DNA from: a virus | Length of the DNA stretch: 64,000 bases | Virus record (IMG/VR): IMGVR_UViG_3300025133_000038 | Span: 55,351-119,350 of that record | Reading direction: 5' to 3' (one strand) | Shown: positions 7,746 through 57,600 of the stretch, one piece after another | How positions within the stretch are numbered: position 1 is the stretch's first letter | Layout: the number at the start of each line of letters is the position of its first letter | The notes under the pieces: generated by a model | Seen by the model: the letters and a program-made list of their open reading frames with translations, nothing else | Told to the model about the DNA's origin: nothing | Database searches by the model: none | Position numbers and translations under genes: made by a program

Positions 7746-8425
7746 TGGAAAGAATACTAATGCCGTATGAGCAAGGGAAAGTCCTTGTTAATGAGGCTGA
7801 CGTTCTATTATTTAGGGGAACTGGTTGGGCTAGTTATTTTTTAAGCCGAAGCGGTAAGAGTACGTACACCCATGTAGCTATGGCCTCATGGATTAATGGG
7901 CGTGCTAATACCCCTGATGGTATTCTTGAGTGTGTAGAATTTAGGGAGGGCAGCCCTGTAGCGGGGCTGTTCAACTCTAATGCTGCTGGTAGTGGGCGTG
8001 CCGTTAACTTGAGCCGGGAAGTTGATAAATATCCTGGTTGTATTGACGTATATCGCCCTATACCCTATTGCACTAAGTGGGTCTTTGATGAAGAGAACGA
8101 AGACCTCAAATTGGAAAGAACATTCCTTGTTCATAAGGATGTTACAGATACAATGAGAAGGCTTACAGGTCTTCCCTATGGTTGGAGAAGAATCTGGTGG
8201 CTTGCCAAGCAAAGCATGGCTGGCTTCAGATTGTTCACAAACGTAGAAAGCCTACAGGATGATGAAAGCGGAGACATAATCTATCCAGTATGCAGTACTG
8301 CTGTCGCCTATTGCTTTAATAAAAACGGGTTCGACCTTATCAATAACAAGTCCGACGAGTGGACAGAACCAGGGGACGTTGCTCGTTCAGCGAGACTTTC
8401 TTATCTTTTCACGCTCGAACCTTGA
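7745..8425 (+). CDS. permuted papain-like NlpC/P60 enzyme (YiiX/YaeF-like)
   Basis: DVLLFRG...YTHVAM (His first)...GLPYG...VCSTAVAYC (Cys later)...PGD. Confidence 0.75.
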   Translation: MERILMPYEQGKVLVNEADVLLFRGTGWASYFLSRSGKSTYTHVAMASWINGRANTPDGILECVEFREGSPVAGLFNSNAAGSGRAVNLSREVDKYPGCIDVYRPIPYCTKWVFDEENEDLKLERTFLVHKDVTDTMRRLTGLPYGWRRIWWLAKQSMAGFRLFTNVESLQDDESGDIIYPVCSTAVAYCFNKNGFDLINNKSDEWTEPGDVARSARLSYLFTLEP

Positions 8426-8449
8426 CAAAATCGCTTTATCCTCTATAAT
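8419..8449 (+). promoter_or_regulatory. class-1 sigma70-type promoter ACCTTGACA-N16-TATAAT
   Basis: TTGACA 8422-8427, TATAAT 8444-8449. Confidence 0.85.
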
Positions 8450-8488: not shown

Positions 8489-9007
8489 ATGAAGTTTCTT
8501 GTTTTTCTTACTGTTTTGTTGAGTTCCACCATTTCCTATGGTTTGGATACAATTCATGTAGACAACCTTGTTGTTACGGAAAACGTAGACCTTATAGAAA
8601 CCAACCACTTCTATGATGATGCTGGTAGGCTTGTTTTCGACCAAGCAATCTTTTATCAGTGGGAGTCATACCCTGGTAATCGCTATCAAGTAATAGCATG
8701 GAGGTTGATAAAGCACAACAATCAGCTTCCGACATATAATTATCAAACAAATAGATATGAATGTGTTTGGATGGACGGGCATACTCTGCGAAGAGTAAGA
8801 AGCAAGCAGGTTAGAGAGACGTGGACCCAGCATGACCCAGAGATTCTAGAGCGAGAGCATTTCCCCAAAGAACATAGAAGAAACCTAATCAAACCTAGAA
8901 TAAAAGAACCTCTTCTTGAGAAAAACCCCTTTGGCTTCCTAAATAAAGCAGTAGATGGCATAGTTATATTTAAGGGAACATTGGTGGAGTTGAAAAAAAC
9001 ATGGTAG
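8489..9007 (+). CDS. secreted hypothetical protein resembling a Planctomycete conserved family
   Basis: Signal peptide MKFLVFLTVLLSSTISYG; VDLIETNHFYDDAGRLVFDQAIFYQW...VIAWRL...ETWTQHDPE (family recalled from memory, not searched). Confidence 0.6.
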   Translation: MKFLVFLTVLLSSTISYGLDTIHVDNLVVTENVDLIETNHFYDDAGRLVFDQAIFYQWESYPGNRYQVIAWRLIKHNNQLPTYNYQTNRYECVWMDGHTLRRVRSKQVRETWTQHDPEILEREHFPKEHRRNLIKPRIKEPLLEKNPFGFLNKAVDGIVIFKGTLVELKKTW

Positions 9008-9453
9008 ACCACAAATGGAAGAAGAGATTTATAGAACTAGCCAAGCATGTGTCTGAATGGTCACAAGACCCATCTACCCAAGTTGGTTCAGTAATAGTAA
9101 GACCTAATAAAAGCATCGCTTCCTTAGGGTTCAATGGGTTTCCACAAGGCGTAGAGGACACAAAAGAAAGATACTTAGATAGAGAAATGAAGTTAAAGTT
9201 GATGGTTCATGCAGAGCAAAACGCAATTCTTTTTGCTAATGAATCATTGATAGGGTACACAATATTTACCTACCCTCTTTTTCCCTGCTCTATATGTGCG
9301 GGTTTTATTATACAGAGTGGTATAACCAGGGTTATTTCTCCAAGTTCAACCTATGGGAAGTATAGGATGCCTAATACTAGGTGGGATGAGTCTAATAAGC
9401 TGGCTAAGTCTATGTTTGACGAGTGCGGCGTGTCCTATGAGGAATTAATTTAA
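9001..9453 (+). CDS. dCMP deaminase
   Basis: SQDPSTQVG, GFNGFP, VHAEQNAI, PCSIC Zn motifs. Confidence 0.93.
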   Translation: MVDHKWKKRFIELAKHVSEWSQDPSTQVGSVIVRPNKSIASLGFNGFPQGVEDTKERYLDREMKLKLMVHAEQNAILFANESLIGYTIFTYPLFPCSICAGFIIQSGITRVISPSSTYGKYRMPNTRWDESNKLAKSMFDECGVSYEELI

Positions 9454-9492
9454 AAAAACAAAGTGACCACCACTTTACTTATGTAGTAAGGC

Positions 9493-9502
9493 GGTGTATA
9501 AT
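9493..9502 (+). promoter_or_regulatory. class-2 promoter GGTGTATAAT
   Basis: Exact motif in an intergenic region, overlapped by an upstream imperfect hairpin. Confidence 0.65.
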
Positions 9503-9507
9503 AAGAT

Positions 9508-9696
9508 TAGAGTTGGAGCATAAAGAGCAGAGATTCACTTCTCACGTTAAAGCGACACCACTCCAACCTTACTATGACCGATGAGTGCAACAGACTATTA
9601 AAGATGTTTTACTAACCAAGATTGCGCAGCAGGTTATCTCAACAGTGTCGCTTCAAAATTTACAGACCTGTCACAGTAATGTGGCGGGTCTTTTTT
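9508..9696 (+). ncRNA. candidate ~190-nt structured RNA (sRNA or attenuator/riboswitch-like leader)
   Basis: Bounded by promoter and terminator; GTTGGAG(9512-18)/CTCCAAC(9561-67) and AAGCGACAC(9550-58)/GTGTCGCTT(9645-53) pairings cross each other. Confidence 0.5.
9664..9696 (+). terminator. Rho-independent terminator with GNRA loop
   Basis: AGACCTGTCACA-GTAA-TGTGGCGGGTCT-TTTTT. Confidence 0.85.
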
Positions 9697-9716
9697 ACGT
9701 CTGGAAAGGAAATATT

Positions 9717-10052
9717 ATGGAACTAAATAACCAGAACGAAGATGAGCTAAAGAAACTCAATGACAGACCCCCAATCGAACTGTCTTTCTATCCTAAGAAC
9801 TCCCAAGGAGAAATTATGGGTGAGAGAAAAGTAGTAAGGGGTGATGGATTTAAGGTGTGGCGAACCTGGACAAATAATAATGGCCCAGGTCGCTCTAACA
9901 AGAAACGAAAGCCCAACTTCAAAAAGAAGCAAGGAAATCAACGCTATAAGGAAGTCTTGCCAAAAGGTAAAGAGGCAGACAATCTAGCAAAGGAAGTGGC
10001 TAAATATGCGGAGAAGAAGCAAGAGGCAAGAGATAATAATGACAACTCATAA
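9717..10052 (+). CDS. basic hypothetical protein
   Basis: ATG 9717 with AAGGA SD; the track's 9585 start would run through the terminator. Confidence 0.65.
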   Translation: MELNNQNEDELKKLNDRPPIELSFYPKNSQGEIMGERKVVRGDGFKVWRTWTNNNGPGRSNKKRKPNFKKKQGNQRYKEVLPKGKEADNLAKEVAKYAEKKQEARDNNDNS

Positions 10053-12489
10053 GTATGAGAATGCTGTAGCCGAATCGGAAAAGTACTTTGGGAATAGTTT
10101 GTCGGCCAAGGCTTGTACAGACAAGTACTTATTGAGAAACAATGAAAATAAACTATTGGAGAAGACCCCTGTAGATATGCATACGCGTATCGCTAAAGAG
10201 GTCGCAAGGATTGAGAAGAAGAAATTTAAAAATCCCCTTACCGAACAACAAATCTTTGATTACCTAGATGGTTTTGGAAAGATTATTCCGCAAGGGAGTC
10301 CAATGCATGGTATTGGCAATAAAGAACAATTCGTCAGCCTAAGTAACTGTTTTGTCCTACATAAACCTTTGGATTCCTATGGTGGAATCATGTTGGTTGA
10401 CGAACAAATAGTGCAGATTTCCAAACGCCGAGGTGGTGTTGGTATCTCGCTTGATAACCTACGACCCACAGGTTCCCCAACCCATAACTCTTCTCGTACA
10501 AGTACGGGGATGCGGTCATGGATGGAACGCTACTCTAGTTCAATTAGAGAAGTTGGTCAGGCAGGTAGAAGGGGCGCGTTAATACTTACCTTAAACGTAC
10601 ATCACCCCGACATACTAACCTTTATTACAGCAAAGAATGATGGCACTAGTGTTACTGGGGCTAATATCAGCGTTCAGTATACTGATGAGTTCTTAGAGGC
10701 TGTCTATAATGATGAAGAGTATGAGCAAAGATGGCCCATTGATTCTAAAGACCCAGAAGTTTCCGTTAAGGTTAAGGCTAGAGATATATGGGAAGCCGCT
10801 GTTCATAATGCGTGGGATAGGGCTGAGCCAGGATTACTGTTCTGGGACAATGTCCTAAAGGAGAGTCCCGCAGACTGTTACGAAGACTTCAAGACTATCT
10901 GTACTAACCCCTGTGCTGAGATTCCCCTCTCTGTATTAGACTCATGCCGCCTATTGGTTATGAACCTATTCCAGTATGTTGAGAATCACTTCACAGACAA
11001 AGCTAAGTTTGACTTCAAACGATTCCGTGAAGATACTATGGTAGCACAGCGAATTATGGACGATATTATTGACCTCGAATTAGAGGCTGTTAATCGTATC
11101 ATTCGTAAGATTAAGGCTGACCCTGAACCTATGTATGCTAAGAAGGCAGAGCTTGATACGTGGAATGAGATTAAGAAAGCCTGTGTAAATGGGCGACGTA
11201 CCGGAACTGGTATCACGGCACTTGGTGATACGCTAGCTGCTATGGGTATCAAGTATGGTACTGAGGAATCTATCAGTATGACTGAGATGATTTATCGTGA
11301 ACTTAAACTTGCGGTCTATCGTAGCTCAGTTGATATGGCTAAAGAGATTGGACCTTTCAAGTCTTGGGACCACAATAAAGAGAAGAAGAATCCTTTCTTA
11401 TTGCGCATCAAGAAGGAAGACCCTGAGCTATGGAAGGATATGAAGAAGTACGGCAGGCGTAACATAGCATGTCTTACTACTGCACCAACTGGTACTACCA
11501 GCATGATGGCTATGCTACGTGTCTTGGTTGGAGAGGAATGTTTTAAGGAACACGGTACTACAACAGGTATTGAACCCTTGTTCCAACTCTCATTCATCCG
11601 TCGTAAGAAGGGTAACCCTGGCGACGACGGTTTCCGTAGTGATTTTGTGGACGAGTCCGGTGACCACTGGATGGAGTTTGAGGTCTTCCACCCTGGCGTG
11701 GAACTATGGAAGAAGGTAACTGGTGAGACTGATGTGACCAAGTCCCCATACTATGGAGCTTGTTCACCGGATATTGATTGGACTAACAGAGTAAGATTGC
11801 AGGCTGCTGCCCAGCGACACGTAGACCACTCTATCTCTAGCACTGTAAACCTCCCTGAGGATGTGTCGGAAGAGACAGTGGGTGAAATCTACTTGGAAGC
11901 ATGGAAGTCTGGCTGTAAGGGCATGACGGTATACCGTCAAGGTTGTCGAACTGGAGTCCTGTTGGAAAAGAAGGTGGGTATTCCTAAAACGAATGCTCCT
12001 CCTCGACCAAAAGAGTTAGACTGTGATGTCTATCATATCTCTGTCAAGGGTCAACCATACTTTGTTATAGTTGGTCTATATGAGGGAGACCCCTACGAAG
12101 TTTTCGCAGGAAAGAATGGCGTTATTGGTAAGAAGATTAAGACAGGCAAAGTTGTTAAGAAGGGGCGTAAGCAATACAAAGCTATCTTTGATGATGATAG
12201 TGAGCTATCTCCTCTAAGTGCTTTCTCTTCTGACGAAGAAGAAGTGGTGACAAGAATGTGTTCTACTGCCTTACGTCATGGTACTGATATTAGTTTCCTG
12301 GTCCATCAACTAGAGAAGTCTAATGGTAGCTTGGACTCATTCTCCAAGAGTATTGCGAGAGCCCTAAAGAAATATATCGGTGATGGGACCGAGGTAAAAG
12401 GCGAAGAGTGTGAACAGTGTTCTGGAAAGCTAATCAGACAAGAAGGCTGTATGACTTGCCCCGGCTGTGGCTGGGCAAAATGTACGTAA
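10039..12489 (+). CDS. nrdJ: ribonucleotide reductase, class II (adenosylcobalamin-dependent)
   Basis: SLSNCF, RRGGVG, GRRGA, ANISV, EPG, TNPCAE, APTGT, SISSTVNLP, KGMTVYR; C-terminal TSCPD-like domain plus CxxC...CxxC; no nrdB nearby. Confidence 0.88.
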   Translation: MTTHKYENAVAESEKYFGNSLSAKACTDKYLLRNNENKLLEKTPVDMHTRIAKEVARIEKKKFKNPLTEQQIFDYLDGFGKIIPQGSPMHGIGNKEQFVSLSNCFVLHKPLDSYGGIMLVDEQIVQISKRRGGVGISLDNLRPTGSPTHNSSRTSTGMRSWMERYSSSIREVGQAGRRGALILTLNVHHPDILTFITAKNDGTSVTGANISVQYTDEFLEAVYNDEEYEQRWPIDSKDPEVSVKVKARDIWEAAVHNAWDRAEPGLLFWDNVLKESPADCYEDFKTICTNPCAEIPLSVLDSCRLLVMNLFQYVENHFTDKAKFDFKRFREDTMVAQRIMDDIIDLELEAVNRIIRKIKADPEPMYAKKAELDTWNEIKKACVNGRRTGTGITALGDTLAAMGIKYGTEESISMTEMIYRELKLAVYRSSVDMAKEIGPFKSWDHNKEKKNPFLLRIKKEDPELWKDMKKYGRRNIACLTTAPTGTTSMMAMLRVLVGEECFKEHGTTTGIEPLFQLSFIRRKKGNPGDDGFRSDFVDESGDHWMEFEVFHPGVELWKKVTGETDVTKSPYYGACSPDIDWTNRVRLQAAAQRHVDHSISSTVNLPEDVSEETVGEIYLEAWKSGCKGMTVYRQGCRTGVLLEKKVGIPKTNAPPRPKELDCDVYHISVKGQPYFVIVGLYEGDPYEVFAGKNGVIGKKIKTGKVVKKGRKQYKAIFDDDSELSPLSAFSSDEEEVVTRMCSTALRHGTDISFLVHQLEKSNGSLDSFSKSIARALKKYIGDGTEVKGEECEQCSGKLIRQEGCMTCPGCGWAKCT

Positions 12490-12503: not shown

Positions 12504-12534
12504 ACCTTGACAGGGCCGAATCATCCTCTATAAT
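12504..12534 (+). promoter_or_regulatory. class-1 promoter ACCTTGACA-N16-TATAAT
   Basis: TTGACA 12507-12512, TATAAT 12529-12534. Confidence 0.85.
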
Positions 12535-13323: not shown

Positions 13324-13885
13324 TAATGGTAGCCCTATGGGTATAATCTCTTGGAAGAGAGCTGTCACCATGTCAGTTCTTAACCAACAGAAACAAGACG
13401 AAGGGCTAGTTGTTCTAACATACTTTCAAAATGACTATATCCTGGGAGCTTCTGGAAAGAAGTATGAAATCCCCGCTGTTGTCATGTGTCCAAGGTATGT
13501 CAAACGTAAGGACAAAGGTGTACCATTCTCTCGTAAGAATGTATATCTGCGTGACCAAATGACTTGTCAGTACTGTGGTAAAACAGACGGTACTGCTCGT
13601 AATCTAACTTACGACCATGTCATACCAAGGTCTACTTGGAACAAGAAGGGGTATAATGGCACTCCTACTAATTGGACAAATATCGTGGCTTGTTGTGAAC
13701 CATGCAACAAATTAAAGGCTGACCGTACTCCTAAGCAGGCAGGTATGAAGTTGCTTAAGCAACCGAAACAACCTAACTCTCAGCAGTACATACTAGGACT
13801 AAGTCCTTGGTGTAGGATTCCCGAAGAGTGGGAACCATTCATTACACCATTGTATAAGCACCTGGAGCCTGGAAACAAGCCGTAG
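13286..13885 (+). CDS. HNH endonuclease (McrA/HNH_5-like)
   Basis: TLVLN, FSRKNVYLRDQMTCQYCG, TYDHVIPRS, WTNIVACCEPCNKLKADRTP. Confidence 0.9.
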   Translation: MKTEHQRTLVLNSNGSPMGIISWKRAVTMSVLNQQKQDEGLVVLTYFQNDYILGASGKKYEIPAVVMCPRYVKRKDKGVPFSRKNVYLRDQMTCQYCGKTDGTARNLTYDHVIPRSTWNKKGYNGTPTNWTNIVACCEPCNKLKADRTPKQAGMKLLKQPKQPNSQQYILGLSPWCRIPEEWEPFITPLYKHLEPGNKP

Positions 13886-13938
13886 GGACATGGGGAGTGG
13901 CTACAAATGTGGTCACTTCCCTATTTTTTAGGAATAAA

Positions 13939-24875: not shown

Positions 24876-25476
24876 AACATTTATGAAGGCAGTAGCAGCG
24901 ACTACTAGCCTTGTAGTCTTGCCTTTTAAGGCATTAGCTAAGAAACAACCTATGAGTTGGGAATATCCTGCGATAGGTAAGATTGAGAGTATCTATTGCT
25001 CTAATGATATTTCTTCTTCTGTTATGTTTAATGGTGGTCCAAGTTATGAGCTTCCTCGTAAGAATGGTCCCTATATTAGATGGATAAACTTTCCTATCGA
25101 GACTATGCTGGAGATAAACTTCGAGAACGAGGCTTGTATTGTCTACAAGGGGTTTAACTTCAAGCGAGAGCAGATAGAAGGTAAGACACTAGATGAGATG
25201 ATTCACCATGTTAAAATATCAAAGATGGGTATCTCAGAACTATACTTAGATAAAAAGAATTGCTTTAAGATGAGCAGCGTAACCTTTCCAAACCCAACAA
25301 AGGAAACGATTGTAGTAAACCTAGAAGACTTAGGTTTGGGAGACATGAGGAGGGTTCCTAATGATAATGCTCCACGCATCACCTATGAGACATTGTTTGA
25401 TGGAAAGCCTGCTAGTGAGGTGGATTTATCTCGTTACCGAGAATCGGAAGCCGAAATACTAAAGAGGTATATTTGA
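24865..25476 (+). CDS. hypothetical protein with twin-arginine (Tat)-like signal peptide
   Basis: GGAGGAG SD; MKRRTFMKAVAATTSLVVLPFKALA. Confidence 0.6.
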   Translation: MKRRTFMKAVAATTSLVVLPFKALAKKQPMSWEYPAIGKIESIYCSNDISSSVMFNGGPSYELPRKNGPYIRWINFPIETMLEINFENEACIVYKGFNFKREQIEGKTLDEMIHHVKISKMGISELYLDKKNCFKMSSVTFPNPTKETIVVNLEDLGLGDMRRVPNDNAPRITYETLFDGKPASEVDLSRYRESEAEILKRYI

Positions 25477-25943: not shown

Positions 25944-25974
25944 ACCTTGACAAAATCGCCTTTCGCCCTATAAT
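25944..25974 (+). promoter_or_regulatory. class-1 promoter ACCTTGACA-N16-TATAAT
   Basis: TTGACA 25947-25952, TATAAT 25969-25974. Confidence 0.88.
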
Positions 25975-26015
25975 ACCCAAAGACAACTTGAGACTTTTCA
26001 CAAAACGAGATTGAT

Positions 26016-27896
26016 ATGAAAACTTATACACCACTACATTGTCATACTCATTACAGTCTACTTGATGGCCTATCAAAGCCAGAGAAGGTAGCTGAGAGAC
26101 TTGACGAGATAGGTGTTGAGGCGTGTGCTATCACAGACCACGGTAATATCAGTGGTAGTGTGGCCTTCTCTAATGCCCTAAGGGGCCATGAACGCCCTAA
26201 GAAATCTATTCTTGGGTGCGAACTATATGTTTGTAGTGAACATGCTACTATTCAAGTTCCAGAGAACCAAAAGCTACTACATCTTCCAGTCCTAGCTAAG
26301 AACAAGGCTGGTTGGAACAAGTTAATTCACCTAACTAGTAGTTCTAATTCCTCGGAACACTTCTATCATAAGCCCCGGCTGTCCCTAGACCAGATAACGG
26401 AGTATTCTGGTAACCTTATTGGCTTCAGTGGTCACCTGGGTTCCCATATTGCCTCCTCTATCCTGGTTGATGGTAAGCCCCATGATAACTGGCGTAAGCA
26501 AACAGCTAAGCTAGCCGAATGGATGCGAGACTGTTTCGGTAAGGACAATTTCTACCTAGAAATCCAACTAATGGACCACGTAAGCAATCCCCTACAGAAG
26601 GTGGTAGCAGACTGCGTGCGAACAATTAGTAAGGACACAGGTATCCCCTGCATTGCTACTCCTGACGCCCACTATGCTAGGTCAGAAGACGCAATCGACC
26701 AGAGGATTCTTCTCTGCACCAACTTGAGAAAGACTCTAACTGAGTGTTATAACGATAAGAATCAAACTATGGGTTGTTTCTTCAAGTCTGAGAATTATCA
26801 CATCCCTTCATACGAAGAGATGCTTTCATATGGGCATACTGAGGAAGAGTTAGATAACACAATGGCTCTGACTAGTACTGTTGATGACTATCAGATTGTT
26901 GGCCCTCCTATTTTCCCTCAGTTTGAATGTCCTGGTGGCATTAGTGCTGATGACCACCTAAGGCAGATGTGTAGGGATGGTTTTAGGCAAAAGGTACTAG
27001 AGAAGGGATTAGATACAGCCCAATATGGGGCTCAGGCAGACAAAGAACTTAAGGTATTTGTAGATGCTCAACTATCTGCGTACTTCCTGATTGTTCAGGA
27101 TGTTCTACAGTTTTGTACTGATAAAGGGTGGATGTTAGGACCGGGGCGTGGCTCAGCAGCAGGCTGTCTAGTCTCATACCTGATTGACATTACTCAGATT
27201 GACCCTCTTCCACATGAGTTGTGGTTTGAGCGATTTTATAACGCTGGCCGTAATAGTGCTGACCATGTATCTATTCCTGATATTGATATGGACGTGCCTA
27301 TCACCAAGCGGGCGGCTGTTATTGACTATTTAAAAGAGAAGTACGGGCAAGACAAAGTCTCTCAGATGATTACCTATCAGACAATGAAGGGTAGTGGGGC
27401 GTTGAAGGCTGTACTAAGGGCTCACGGTGGTGTTCCGTTCGAGATGATGAACGAGATGACCAAGAACATGCCTGAGGAGGCTAAGATTTCCAGTGAGCTT
27501 CAGGCGATGAAGGATGCTACTGGTAGTGCCTCTATTATTCAGTGGGCGCTGGAGAACAGAGCGAAGGATTTTGCTGACTGGGTGACGATGGATGACGAGG
27601 GTAACCTTGAGGGTCCATTCGCACAGCGGTTTGAACAGGCTATGAGACTAGAGGGTACTAAGGTAGCTCAGTCTAAGCACGCTGCTGGTGTAGTTATTGC
27701 ACCGGAGGCCCTAAGTAACATCTGTCCGATGGTACTGGATACAAAGAGCAAGGAACGCAACATGATTGCGGGACTTGAAATGAATGACCTTGAGGCGTTA
27801 GGCTTAATCAAATTTGATGTACTTGGCATTGCTTACTTGGATAAGATTATGGGTATTCAGGACATTCTTGGGACAGGGGAGATTCAGTGTGCGTAA
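26016..27896 (+). CDS. dnaE: DNA polymerase III alpha, N-terminal half (PHP + palm/thumb)
   Basis: LHCHTHYSLLDG, ITDHG, DAHY, GPGRGSAAG, FERF, PDIDMD, SKHAAGVVI, GLIKFDVLG; stops about 20 aa after KFD. Confidence 0.95.
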   Translation: MKTYTPLHCHTHYSLLDGLSKPEKVAERLDEIGVEACAITDHGNISGSVAFSNALRGHERPKKSILGCELYVCSEHATIQVPENQKLLHLPVLAKNKAGWNKLIHLTSSSNSSEHFYHKPRLSLDQITEYSGNLIGFSGHLGSHIASSILVDGKPHDNWRKQTAKLAEWMRDCFGKDNFYLEIQLMDHVSNPLQKVVADCVRTISKDTGIPCIATPDAHYARSEDAIDQRILLCTNLRKTLTECYNDKNQTMGCFFKSENYHIPSYEEMLSYGHTEEELDNTMALTSTVDDYQIVGPPIFPQFECPGGISADDHLRQMCRDGFRQKVLEKGLDTAQYGAQADKELKVFVDAQLSAYFLIVQDVLQFCTDKGWMLGPGRGSAAGCLVSYLIDITQIDPLPHELWFERFYNAGRNSADHVSIPDIDMDVPITKRAAVIDYLKEKYGQDKVSQMITYQTMKGSGALKAVLRAHGGVPFEMMNEMTKNMPEEAKISSELQAMKDATGSASIIQWALENRAKDFADWVTMDDEGNLEGPFAQRFEQAMRLEGTKVAQSKHAAGVVIAPEALSNICPMVLDTKSKERNMIAGLEMNDLEALGLIKFDVLGIAYLDKIMGIQDILGTGEIQCA

Positions 27897-28842
27897 ATCA
27901 AGACACAAAGATATGTCTCGTCAAAAATTTCATATGTTTACTCTTATAAAGAGGGTGGAGAATACTAAGCATGGAGAAGTAAAATATTTATGTGAATGTG
28001 ATTGTGGAACAATAAAAGAGGTTGTTTTATCACACCTAAGAAGAAATAGTGTGAAATCTTGCGGCTGTAAGAGAAGAAGTAGTCTAGAGGGTAAAAAATT
28101 TGGAAGATTATTGGTTAAAAAATATTCCCACACAGATAAGCATCGTTGTATGAGATGGGAATGTTTATGTAAATGTGGAAATATCTGCTATCCAACTTCT
28201 GCCCATTTAACTACTGGCACTGTAAAGTCTTGCGGGTGTTTAGTCGCAAAGAGCAATCAAATTAAATTGGATAATATAAAACAGGATAGGGTTTTAAATA
28301 ATAATTTAGCAAAACTACATCCTAACCTTTGTTTAATATGGGATTATAAAAAAAACAACAAAACGCCAGAAGAATTTACTAGCGGCAGTGGAGAAAAAGT
28401 GTGGTGGACTTGTGATAAACACGAGTCTTATCTACAAACTATATATGCTAAGTCTAAAAGGAATCATACTTGTCCAAAATGTAAGGTTTCCCATGGAGAA
28501 AGACGGATAATATCTATCCTAGATAAGTTAAAGATAGAATATTTATTTGACCAGAAAGAAAATAAGTATAAAGAGATAGAAGATTGTAAAATAGATTTTT
28601 ACCTACCAAGGTTTGACCTGTATGTAGAATATCATGGGCGACAACACTATAAAGCTATTGATATTGGAGTATGGGGAATAAAATCCAAAGAAGAAGGTGA
28701 AGCTAGATTGAAGAAACAACAGATAAGGGACCAATTGGTCCGAGACACACTAGGTAACAAACTACTAGAAATTCCATACTGGGATTTCGATAATATTGAA
28801 ACTTTAATTTTGGAGAAATTAGAATGGTTAAAAGAGAACTGA
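27889..28842 (+). mobile_element. free-standing homing endonuclease-like gene (Cys-rich DNA-binding repeats + Zn ribbon + Vsr-like nuclease)
   Basis: Two C.C.CG...KSCGC repeats, HP...WDY.KN...SG.KVWW.C...CPKC, IDFYLP...VEYHGRQHY; visibly more AT-rich than flanks; GTG 27889 overlaps dnaE-N stop. Confidence 0.8.
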
Positions 28843-31560: not shown

Positions 31561-31592
31561 ACCTTGACAAATGGGTCGGTGGTGGCTATAAT
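31561..31592 (+). promoter_or_regulatory. class-1 promoter ACCTTGACA-N17-TATAAT
   Basis: TTGACA 31564-31569, TATAAT 31587-31592. Confidence 0.88.
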
Positions 31593-54600: not shown

Positions 54601-57600
54601 GCATCCTTATTGAATACGAACTCACCTGGGGTCAGTAGGGCTGGAATGGTATCCTTCGGGGAAATACCTCTTGCTGAACCACCTCTATTAAAGAACTCAT
54701 CAGGAATTTTTAAATTTTCTCTTTGTTCTAACTGAGCTTGTCTTACTAGGGACTGAGAGCCTCTCTTGTCCCTACCTTTATCTGTACCAAATCTAGACTT
54801 ACCAGTGTCCTTAAAGGTTTTTTTATCACCCCTTAGAAAATTTTGAACTTGTTTTAAAAACTTTGTATTATTCTTACCATAAGAACCAATAGTTCTGGTC
54901 GCATCCGTAGGTATATCAGAAGGAATGTTAAAGTTTTCCCGTGAAGCTAATTTTTTACCAAGACCAAGAGGAAAATCAATAGACTTACCAAAGACTCCTT
55001 TTTGTCCCTCAAAAGGGGCTCCAAGAGAACCCAGCGCTGCCTCAAAGATTATACCAGCAGCAGCGGTCATATCTGTTGCTGCCATTGCTTCTTTTATATT
55101 TGTTGACTTACCAGCACTTAATCTACCAGCCATTGCTGATGAAGTATTCTTTACAGCAGTTTCTAGGTCTCCTTCTATTCCAGCCTCTGCCTTGTCTTGA
55201 AACTTATCCCCAAGAGTTCCCTTATAAACAACTACCTTCTTTTTATCTGTTGGAGTTTTAGAAGTAAAAGGATTAGCTCCTTCTATAGGGTTTGGTCCTA
55301 GTCCAACAAGACCAATCTTAATAGCCCCTTCTGTTTCTATAGCTTCCTCTGCTTCTATCTTAGCTAAGTCGTCTATTTTAAGACTATGTTCTTTATTAAA
55401 ATAAACCTTTTTTTGAAAACTATTCTTTAAAATATCCCTAACACCTTTGGTGTTTTTAGGTTCTGCATTGGTTGCATTTAAATATTCATCAGAACCAGCT
55501 AGTTGTATCAAGTCTGCTTCTGATAGTCTTTGTATGTTGTCAGAAATACCGCTCCCAGTAAAAAGCTTCCTACCTGCTGCAAGTGCTTTTTTTGCTTCTT
55601 CTAGATTAATATAGTTAGGCGGAGCCCCTTTCATTCTTCTGCTCGTAGAATCCCCATCAGCAAACCTAACACGACCACCCTTGTTGTAACCAAACTTCTT
55701 ACTAAACCTACTAGTTCTACTCTTGTTAATCTCACGCAGACGAGCCCTGTTCGAGACAAGCATCTCCCTTTCTTCTTCTGTCAAAGAAGCCTTCTCCTCA
55801 GCCTGCTCTATCTTCTGCATCAACGCTTGCTTTTTCCTACCAACATTACCAGGAGAACGACCGCGAGTTGTAAGATTAAACTTAGCAGAACCACCCCTAT
55901 TTAGTCTTTGTAGATTTTCGTGACCAATACCCTCAGCAACCTTCTTACGGATTACGAACTCACCTGGAGTTAGGTCGGCCCTAACAGTATCAGAACTACC
56001 TTGACCTGGAACTACACCACCAGTATTGAAACCTAGAACTTTACCTCCACCACTAAATTTCTTACTACTCTTGATAACATTAGTTAGATTAATAAGAGCT
56101 GTGGTGTTAGCCTTCACCATTGTTGTATTAGCAGAGATAGCAGCACTACCTCCTCCAGTTGCAGCCTTAGCAGTAGCAGAACCTAAACTCTTAGCTCCAC
56201 CAGCCCCACCAGAACCCTCTCTTAGACCGCCAAAGAAACCCTTGCCGAATTGTGATGCAGCAGAAGCAACCTTAATGGCGGCAAATGCCGTTAGCAGGGG
56301 AAGAACAGGCTTGACAGCACCAGCCAGTGTGATTAGGCTCTTGGCTGTTGTCAGAACGATGGTTGCAATAGTCTTAAAGGAACTCGTATTAGTCAAGTCA
56401 CGAATAAGGGCAGAGAACTCTTCACGAGTCTGCGCGATTTGAACAGCTAGGGTCTTCTGTGCTTTAGCGGCATCAGTAGCTAGGGAGTCTTGACCTTGTT
56501 GAGCAACCTTAAGGGCTTTCTGAGCATCCCCAAACCTTTGGATTAACGGGATAACTTTACCTACCTGACGGAAACCACCAAGTTCTTCAACCAACTGGTT
56601 AAACTTAGCGCTACGTGGGTCAAGGTTTTTTAGCCCGTCAGAAAGTCTTTCAACAGCCTTGAAGGCACCAACGAAGTTACCTTCTGTATCTTGTAGCTGA
56701 ATACCTAGTTCTTTAAGGTGAACAATGGTGGAACCACGCTGGATACGTGTAAAGACGGTTCTCAAACCAGTAGCGATAGTCTCAGCAGATTCACGGGTCG
56801 TAGCACGAACGCTAGTGAACAAAGCAATAAATTCTTGTAGTTTTTCCAACTTGAATGAGTTGGTAAATGTTTCAACATCACCAGAAGCAGCAGCAAACAC
56901 ACCACCAGTACGTCGTACAGCAGCGATAATATCTTCAGCTTCTACGGCGAACTTACCAGCAACAGCATTAATAGAACCTAGAACCTTCTCTAGGTCTTGG
57001 GCGCCAATTCTAAACTGCCTCATAGCAGCGATAGCACCTTCCGTTGTCTGTTTGATTTGACCAAATGTTGGGGCTAGGTCAGACTTAGCTAGGGCTTCAA
57101 GAGCAACCTTAGTGTCTCTTGCGCTAAGACCTGTCTGAGCCAAGCTACGAGACACCTCCAATAGAGAGGCAGATGAAGTACCAAAGGTTGTAGATAATCT
57201 TGTTATCTCTTTAGTTAGGGAGCTAAGGGAGCCAATGCTTCTATCTCCCACCTGTGCAATCTTAACCAACTGACGCTCAAAATTAATAGCCTCAGAAGCA
57301 GCAGACGAAATAGCCCTTACAAATCCAAACACCAACCCAGTAGCAATACTAAAACCAGCGAATCTCTTTAGGGCTAGACCACCAGCCTTACCAAGCTCGA
57401 ACATAAAGGTAGTAGCTTCTTTTGCAGCATCACCTGTTGCTTTAACCCCAGTGGCAGCGGCCTTTGCTGCGGAAGAAGTTTTAGCTAGACCAGTAGCGGC
57501 AGCGGAAGCAGACTTACCCATACTACCTAGAGAGGCAGCGGCAGCAGCAGATTTGGCTGCAATAGAAGTGAGCGTCTTATCAACGGCCTGTAGCTCTTTA

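Follow-up and report, generated by a model that had tools for sequence, protein, structure and literature searches.

A conserved pseudoknotted RNA ahead of phage ribonucleotide reductase genes, a candidate attenuating leader

Ribonucleotide reductase (RNR) determines how many DNA building blocks are available, and few metabolic genes are more common than its own in marine phages; we know of essentially nothing on how phages regulate it. The question of such regulation is raised by a locus in IMG/VR record IMGVR_UViG_3300025133_000038, a 119-kb record of a marine phage, of which we analysed positions 55,351 to 119,350 (64,000 nucleotides, here called the window and numbered from its first letter). 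A non-coding gap there separates a deoxycytidine monophosphate (dCMP) deaminase gene from a small open reading frame (ORF) and the class II-like RNR gene nrdJ. What does this gap encode? Here we report that it carries a pseudoknotted RNA belonging to a family, spread over many uncultured phages, with a conserved fold, a constant position before reductase genes and terminator-like ends. On balance, we favour the reading that the gap holds the window's copy of a phage-borne, cis-acting and riboswitch-like attenuating leader RNA of RNR operons, which probably sets the level of RNR that is made.

Two helices, H1 and H2, define the fold in the window (Table 1). Their strands follow the order 5'H1 < 5'H2 < 3'H1 < 3'H2, so that the helices cross as in an H-type pseudoknot, with one hairpin (P1.1) in the first loop (L1) and a long one (P3) in the third (L3). 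A preliminary description, made from these letters alone, had pointed to a promoter, both helices and their crossing, the GAGA/TCTC and TAACC/GGTTA pairings and a GNRA-capped terminator, and all of these elements are present where it placed them. It had also listed a competing helix, CACTC 9559-9563 with GAGTG 9583-9587, which can indeed form in the window but, judged by eye, has no matching counterpart in relatives. Its remark that the gap is one of the largest in the window holds in that the gap is among the larger ones, yet three others exceed it on a crude ORF map, with 573, 597 and 690 nt (13324-13896, 24876-25472 and 28134-28823).

Taken singly, the sequence is not distinctive. The fold energy of the 195-nt RNA on the plus strand is not significant (z = -1.60; 13 of 200 shuffles equally good), and the opposite strand with flanks gives z = -2.57. 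Neither promoter-like sites (3 in 2 kb, vs 4.7 +/- 2.4 in shuffles) nor terminator-like sites (3 vs 1.8 +/- 1.5) exceed chance. Given such weak single-sequence folding, proof of an RNA rests on its relatives.

The nearest of these is a near-identical strain (L001, L048 and L181) whose gap shows two substitutions, A>G at 9618 and G>A at 9626, the latter converting a U.G pair of the P3 stem to U-A; contigs from four DNA sequencing runs held just the two known strain variants. Another phage locus, L049, keeps the gene order, with an nrdJ 74% identical to the window's and a homologous gap (nhmmer E = 3.9e-6). Between window and L049, H1 changes from GUUGGAG/CUCCAAC to GCUGGAG/CUCCAGC and H2 from AAGCGACAC/GUGUCGCUU to AAGCGGUAC/GUGCCGCUU, with pairing retained in both, and the terminator stem is wholly different in sequence and still paired. 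The indels between the two gaps (12, 5, 9, 7 and 7 nt) are not uniformly multiples of three, and there is therefore no conserved reading frame here. This disposes of an ORF extension from 9585 that, according to the preliminary description, would have spoken against a structured RNA if translated: indels of 9, 7 and 7 nt fall within it, and the L049 ORF starts at its ATG.

A covariance model built from the window and its close relatives (R1) gave weaker matches directly after the deaminase gene at five less closely related phage loci (L035, L037-L040; E = 4e-4 to 0.15); its matches near 25177-25239 and 25967-26033 in the window are at chance level. Searching IMG/VR with a pattern of the shared blocks returned 47 stretches. 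Forty-six of these carry the RNA convincingly; the spurious matches, L230 and three on the opposite strand, were discarded. A second covariance model (R2) recovered three further copies missed by the pattern (L041-L043), and a promoter-free pattern added one more long-type lineage (L238, L242-L244). R2 includes one erroneous base pair (columns 66-142 of alignment A6), and the pair counts given below used separately specified structure strings. The pattern CGCTTNAAAATTTACA proved unspecific, with at least 118 chance-level stretches, one further pattern search returned only the two lineages already known, and a metagenome scan with an alignment of the small ORF yielded one locus, identical to the L048 type. 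Among prokaryotes, represented by one genome each of 185,579 species, one exact pattern found two stretches, neither of them a full-length R2 match. The carriers' reductases are at most 53% identical to those of any cultured phage.

All members share one architecture. From the 5' end this comprises a TGTATAAT box, 2-9 nt, the H1 5' strand, (N)AUAAAGA, P1.1 and one A; the H2 5' strand (RAGCGRCAC) follows, then 0-4 nt, the H1 3' strand, P3, the H2 3' strand (GUGYCGCUY) and a terminator-like end, which in compact members is a U-run after H2 and in long-type members, the window included, a separate hairpin with its own U-run. The window carries the family blocks AUAAAGA, YUA-RAGCGRCAC and GUGYCGCUY as AUAAAGAG, GUUA-AAGCGACAC and GUGUCGCUU, and links the H2 5' strand to the H1 3' strand by 2 nt.

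Comparison across the family confirms that the pseudoknotted RNA is real. In a MAFFT alignment of 36 distinct sequences that was not fitted to structure and includes the window and L049 (A5), the 16 pairs of H1 and H2 are 93.2% paired, against 36-50% in controls with the partner shifted by one to three columns. Six of the seven H1 pairs have changed on both sides, and no shuffle out of 500 matches the observed pairing or covariation score. Twenty-five compact sequences aligned to R2 (A8), an alignment fitted to the model and thus biased towards structure, give 29 pairs in four helices, 93.9% paired vs 35-45% when slid; 16 pairs have changed on both sides, and none of 500 shuffles equals this. 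The R1 alignment of the long forms (A9) is out of register for H1, and no pair counts were taken from it.

Each helix can also be followed on its own. The best-stem score of H1 averages 8.05 with its own partner, against 4.85 with non-cognate partners (n = 738) and 5.00 with shuffled ones; the own-partner score is at least 6 in 36 of 39 RNAs, among which there are 29 distinct helix sequences. H2 is 99-100% paired in the alignments, has a compensatory variant GAGCG..CGCUC within the family, and reads AAGUGACAC/GUGUCACUU and AAGUAACAC/GUGUUACUU in L041-L043, which were found without selection for H2 sequence. Nearly all members have P1.1 as a hairpin of differing sequence closing one base before H2; the L1 segment has z < -1 in 34 of the 39 RNAs, that of the window being weak (z = -1.3), and outer pairs of P1.1 in the window (AGC 9526-9528 with GUU 9546-9548) are possible, by analogy with other members. 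A long hairpin occupies the place of P3 in all 39 RNAs (L3 z < -1 in 28), and in the compact group P3 is a 6-pair stem in which five pairs show double-sided change. In the window itself, L3 does not exceed shuffles in stability (z = +0.3). A small CAAC/GUUG hairpin suggested by RNAalifold for the compact forms was rejected, as its variation is confined to one strand and inspection by eye finds no such hairpin in L041-L043 and L204.

Some members have alternative pairings open to them. L049 carries the 10-mer AACCTACGAT twice, at 2004-2013 (P1.1) and 2061-2070 (P3), and the partner strands could pair with either copy. In the GUGUCGGAA group (for example L197 1252-1401, minus strand) GUGUCG occurs in both the H1 5' strand and the H2 3' strand, and CGACAC in both the H1 3' strand and the H2 5' strand, so that two nested hairpins are possible in place of the pseudoknot. 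We favour the pseudoknot because other groups, among them L187 and the window, cannot form the nested pair. One H1 pair (A8 columns 10 and 62) is G.U in 24 of 25 compact sequences; of the 36 sequences in A5, 27 have G.U at this pair and seven, the window among them, have G-C. A conserved wobble pair often marks a contact site.

Sequence signals also flank the RNA on either side. A G-TGTATAAT-A box lies directly before it in all 39 distinct upstream stretches, 36 of which came from a pattern that required the box and three (L041-L043) from the box-free model; L049 and the L238 lineage have the box variants TGTATATC and TGTATATA. Few copies have a recognisable -35 hexamer (3 of 39 with at least four of six matches); upstream there are A-tracts. 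On the 3' side, 20 of 41 distinct copies have a U-run right after H2, 12 (window included) a separate hairpin and U-run, six both types of end, and three a four-U run only. Every copy thus ends in a U-run or a hairpin and U-run before the ribosome site, which with its start codon follows 13-140 nt past the terminator-like end, mostly too close for another promoter. In the window the terminator-like hairpin has a folding energy of -19.6 kcal/mol on its own, and 19 nt separate its U-run from ATG 9717.

The genes that follow are nearly uniform in function. Of 34 distinct cases, 32 have an RNR large subunit as the first downstream ORF of at least 70 amino acids (aa): 22 with ATP-cone, lgN and lgC domains, seven with RNR_Alpha/RNR-II_ins_dom, and three with lgN and lgC only. 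In the remaining two, a small nuclease-like ORF precedes a 736-aa RNR frame (L204), and a 74-aa ORF precedes a 730-aa ORF that lay outside the domain scan (L208, the same as L035). The ORF filter skips the 111-aa ORF of the window type, whose frame opens upstream of the RNA end, and leaves three loci without an ORF; two of these read MSVREL... like the class II group, and the third is L212. On the upstream side the genes differ (of 22 tested, nine are dCMP deaminase and the others have no family), and the orientation of the RNA relative to the downstream gene is constant. The window shows the family placement, with terminator (9664-9697), 111-aa ORF and nrdJ following in the same direction.

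Since the downstream genes are of three architectures, the RNA goes with reductases in general and not with vitamin B12. Among phage proteins, the ATP-cone type finds its best matches in entries labelled nrdA and the RNR_Alpha type in entries labelled ribonucleoside-triphosphate reductase. The preliminary description had offered two functional ideas, a small RNA of 6S size and a switch controlling read-through into a B12-dependent RNR. The switch fits better, given the reductase gene in 32 of 34 cases and the terminator-like end, but its restriction to B12 is not supported, with 22 of the 34 downstream genes of the ATP-cone type.

Could the RNA belong to a known class? No Rfam 15 family reached its gathering score in the window and six related loci, and hits at E <= 10 over 9350-9850 were at chance level and rested on the terminator, the best being SdsR_RyeB at 20.7 bits (threshold 38). 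The cobalamin riboswitch model (RF00174) had no match in the window or among these hits, and ARAGORN found no tRNA or tmRNA gene in the window; on both counts the preliminary description had judged correctly. The Rfam scans likewise gave no match to the purine and 2'-deoxyguanosine riboswitch models, the conserved fold being a pseudoknot instead, and none to 6S RNA. The 6S comparison fails on structure too, as the conserved helices cross and enclose separate hairpins and do not form a 6S-type long hairpin, and the sigma-decoy and antitoxin-mimic roles once suggested with it are not supported. Neither the region nor two compact relatives have DNA similarity among 50,697 phage records. A literature search, mostly of abstracts, found no description of the motif; PMC9004378 is on a glutamine riboswitch and not on the RNR pseudoknot leader. 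The leader is an uncatalogued family.

Based on these observations, we suggest how the leader may work. Judging from the place of the TGTATAAT box, transcription would start a few bases past it; the RNA would then fold into the H-type pseudoknot, with P1.1 in its first loop and P3 in its third, and the transcript would meet a terminator ahead of the ribosome site of the downstream genes. In compact relatives, where the H2 3' strand runs into the U-run, formation of the pseudoknot would itself complete a terminator-like helix; the long form of the window would pass through a conserved linker to its separate hairpin and U-run. A signal that stabilises the pseudoknot would stop transcription, leaving little reductase, and otherwise polymerase would read through into the small ORF and nrdJ. 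As H2 of the compact form is the stem before a U-run, folding should favour termination, which suggests an OFF switch. The signal would most likely be a small molecule tied to deoxynucleotide supply, and we guess at a deoxynucleotide-related metabolite because three reductase architectures share the leader. We infer from this arrangement where transcription starts, that termination is regulated, which way the switch works and what kind of signal sets it.

One general mark of a riboswitch, a conserved aptamer-like fold before functionally related genes, is found here. More specifically, the leader could represent a new riboswitch class sensing a signal of the deoxynucleotide pool, for example dATP or another deoxynucleoside triphosphate or diphosphate, as an RNA counterpart of NrdR feedback; we put this forward tentatively, as possible if doubtful. 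Ligand binding would then lock H2, which doubles as the terminator or precedes it.

Several observations weigh against an attenuating leader. A candidate antiterminator, in which the P3 3' arm pairs with the terminator 5' arm, is strong in the window (-10.1 kcal/mol), but no conserved one was found across nine long-type lineages: the pairing scores -6.11 kcal/mol with own partners vs -5.40 when swapped, and 692 of 5000 permutations are equally good. The terminator of the long form is independent of the pseudoknot and six copies have tandem terminators, an arrangement that suits a discrete RNA product no less than a switch. Nor is the motif general to phage reductases, since it occurs in just 2 of 13 nrdJ-based loci and, among 45 deaminase-based loci, in eight with model matches and in L001 by nhmmer. 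Lastly, the IMG/VR pattern itself demanded the -10 box and the H2 strands, and part of their conservation is thus imposed.

These points bear on the alternatives. The promoter, pseudoknot and terminator could be a gene of their own whose product, a stand-alone trans-acting small RNA (sRNA), acts on a protein or on other RNAs, the adjacent reductase being inherited gene order and expressed by leaky read-through alone. The promoter-like box and terminator-like end in every copy agree with this, as do the strong independent terminator after a conserved A/U-rich linker in the long forms, the tandem terminators in 6 of 41 copies and the missing conserved antiterminator. The linker and terminator together resemble the 3' modules of Hfq-binding sRNAs, and the weak SdsR_RyeB hit rests there. 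We nevertheless consider an sRNA unlikely: the reductase follows in 32 of 34 cases and in three architectures while the upstream gene varies, and because in most copies the space past the terminator is too short for the reductase to have its own promoter, the RNA is physically a reductase leader. Slightly less probable still is a leader that depends on a factor, either through a binding site for a protein (an antiterminator or the reductase itself) or by acting on polymerase in the manner of put or EAR, for temporal control. It shares with the attenuator the layout of promoter, structured RNA, terminator or terminators and genes; tandem terminators would suit processive antitermination, and the conservation in the loops could reflect a protein site no less than a ligand pocket. 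However, in the compact form H2 abuts the U-run, so that correct folding favours termination and not antitermination, and the neighbourhood offers no conserved gene as a candidate partner: a small ORF is seen in the window and L049 (these two being related to each other) and in L208 and L204. Rfam gave no hit.

Two further explanations stand much further back. Small ribozymes are common in phage DNA, and the compact pseudoknotted fold with its invariant junction nucleotides would suit a self-cleaving ribozyme or a processing element that splits the deaminase message from the reductase message. Yet such an element needs neither a conserved -10-like box upstream nor terminator-like ends downstream, no Rfam ribozyme family matched, and we regard it as very improbable. 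We give almost no credence to an element acting at the level of DNA, such as an operator or origin, despite a 29-nt imperfect palindrome over the promoter (9468-9496): the compensatory changes in the crossing helices tolerate G.U and are strand-specific, and the orientation to the downstream gene is always the same.

The proposed attenuating leader has likenesses among known regulators. 2'-Deoxyguanosine riboswitches are variants of the purine riboswitch, three-way junctions of about 70 nt found upstream of reductase genes in Mesoplasma florum. Like them, the phage RNA would be a cis leader before RNR genes that ends in a terminator, with a plausible logic of deoxynucleotide feedback; unlike them, it is an H-type pseudoknot of 145-190 nt with two inserted hairpins, found in phage contigs only. 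With the SAM-II, SAM-V, preQ1-II and fluoride riboswitches it shares crossing helices, conserved nucleotides of the first loop beside the second helix and an expression signal on that helix's 3' strand, but it is far larger than these pseudoknots, has hairpins in both loops, and its 3' strand abuts a U-run and not a ribosome site; no sequence or model similarity to them appeared in the Rfam scans. NrdR, the protein repressor of all reductase classes in bacteria, binds NrdR boxes and offers the parallel of one regulator before reductase genes of different classes. It is, however, a DNA-binding protein, and the window has no NrdR-box-like site (no tandem 16-bp boxes at up to three mismatches from the consensus). 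HK022 put, a phage example, and Bacillus EAR are cis-acting structured RNAs between promoter and terminators; in the compact phage leader, by contrast, the conserved helix itself forms the terminator-like stem, and no Rfam similarity links them.

Table 1. Position of the leader RNA's elements and of the adjoining genes in the window
Feature	Position	Strand	Remarks
dCMP deaminase gene	9001-9453		upstream of the gap; Pfam dCMP_cyt_deam_1
Non-coding gap, 263 nt	9454-9716		between dCMP deaminase gene and 111-aa ORF
Promoter-like site TTTACT-17-TATAAT	9474-9502	+	consensus scan, 10/12 matches; -35 at 9474-9479, TATAAT at 9497-9502
Promoter-like box GGTGTATAAT	9493-9502		
Conserved box G-TGTATAAT-A	9494-9503	+	
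Helix H1, 5' strand GUUGGAG	9512-9518	+	pairs with 9561-9567
AUAAAGAG, conserved single strand in loop L1	9520-9527	+	family form (N)AUAAAGA(G)
Hairpin P1.1 within L1	9526-9548	+	inner pairs GAGA 9530-9533 / UCUC 9540-9543
Helix H2, 5' strand AAGCGACAC	9550-9558	+	pairs with 9645-9653
Helix H1, 3' strand CUCCAAC	9561-9567	+	located inside H2
Long hairpin P3	9574-9637	+	AUGACC 9574-9579 / GGUUAU 9632-9637 and GUGCAA 9585-9590 / UUGCGC 9622-9627; minimum-free-energy fold
Pairing TAACC / GGTTA	9613-9617 / 9632-9636		present in the window
Helix H2, 3' strand	9645-9653	+	DNA GTGTCGCTT, RNA GUGUCGCUU
Linker CAAAAUUUAC	9654-9663	+	kept as xAAAAUU(U)ACA in long-type L049, L186, L188, L210 and L238
Intrinsic-terminator-like hairpin	9664-9691	+	12 pairs, GUAA loop; then U6 at 9692-9697
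Ribosome site GGAAAGGAAA	9703-9712	+	precedes ATG 9717
Lysine-rich ORF, 111 aa	9717 (ATG) to 10052 (stop)	+	no Pfam family
Class II-like RNR gene nrdJ	10006-12489	+	Ribonuc_red_lgC, 1.7e-79

Around the leader promoter of the window, the imperfect palindrome mentioned above (CACCAC...GCGGTG) overlaps the -35 element and the spacer; it may serve as an operator or form an upstream hairpin. At the equivalent place (1950-1966) L049 carries a shorter one, ACACC-N7-GGTGT, and several long-type relatives have in common a CCACTTT-like element upstream of the box. The phage also has a sigma-70-like promoter family, TTGACA-N16/17-(C)TATAAT, often preceded by CGACC, with 15 sites besides the leader's weaker one: four in the window (8422-8449, 12507-12534, 25947-25974 and 31564-31592) and 11 elsewhere in the genome. 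No member of the strong form TTGACA-N16-CTATAAT lies between 9502 and 12507-12534, and on that reading nrdJ therefore depends on read-through of 9664-9697.

The 111-aa ORF is 50% identical to its L049 counterpart and has no Pfam family and no match among phage records. Small lysine-rich ORFs lie between leader and reductase in the window (9717-10052), L049 (2204-2530) and L208 (1394-1615), the 74-aa ORF of L208 being weakly similar to the others (E = 0.004, one comparison). The nrdJ frame opening at 10006 overlaps the 111-aa ORF by 47 nt; the true start is probably ATG 10039, as the L049 protein aligns from the second ATG. The nrdJ product also matched lgN and TSCPD, both under Pfam cut-offs, and its closest phage proteins (39-46% identity) include some annotated as B12-dependent RNR.

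One fold before three reductase architectures points to a shared signal and not to a cofactor such as B12. With about 40 distinct sequences, the family is large and varied enough for biochemistry on synthetic RNA without a cultured host. Even if the signal were a protein, the compact forms would be unusually built, with one helix of a pseudoknot doing duty as the stem of a terminator. If the signal is a small molecule, the leader would be a new riboswitch class, so far confined to viruses, and, should the proposed link to deoxynucleotide supply be true, it might be the first RNA from nature to sense deoxynucleotide pools.

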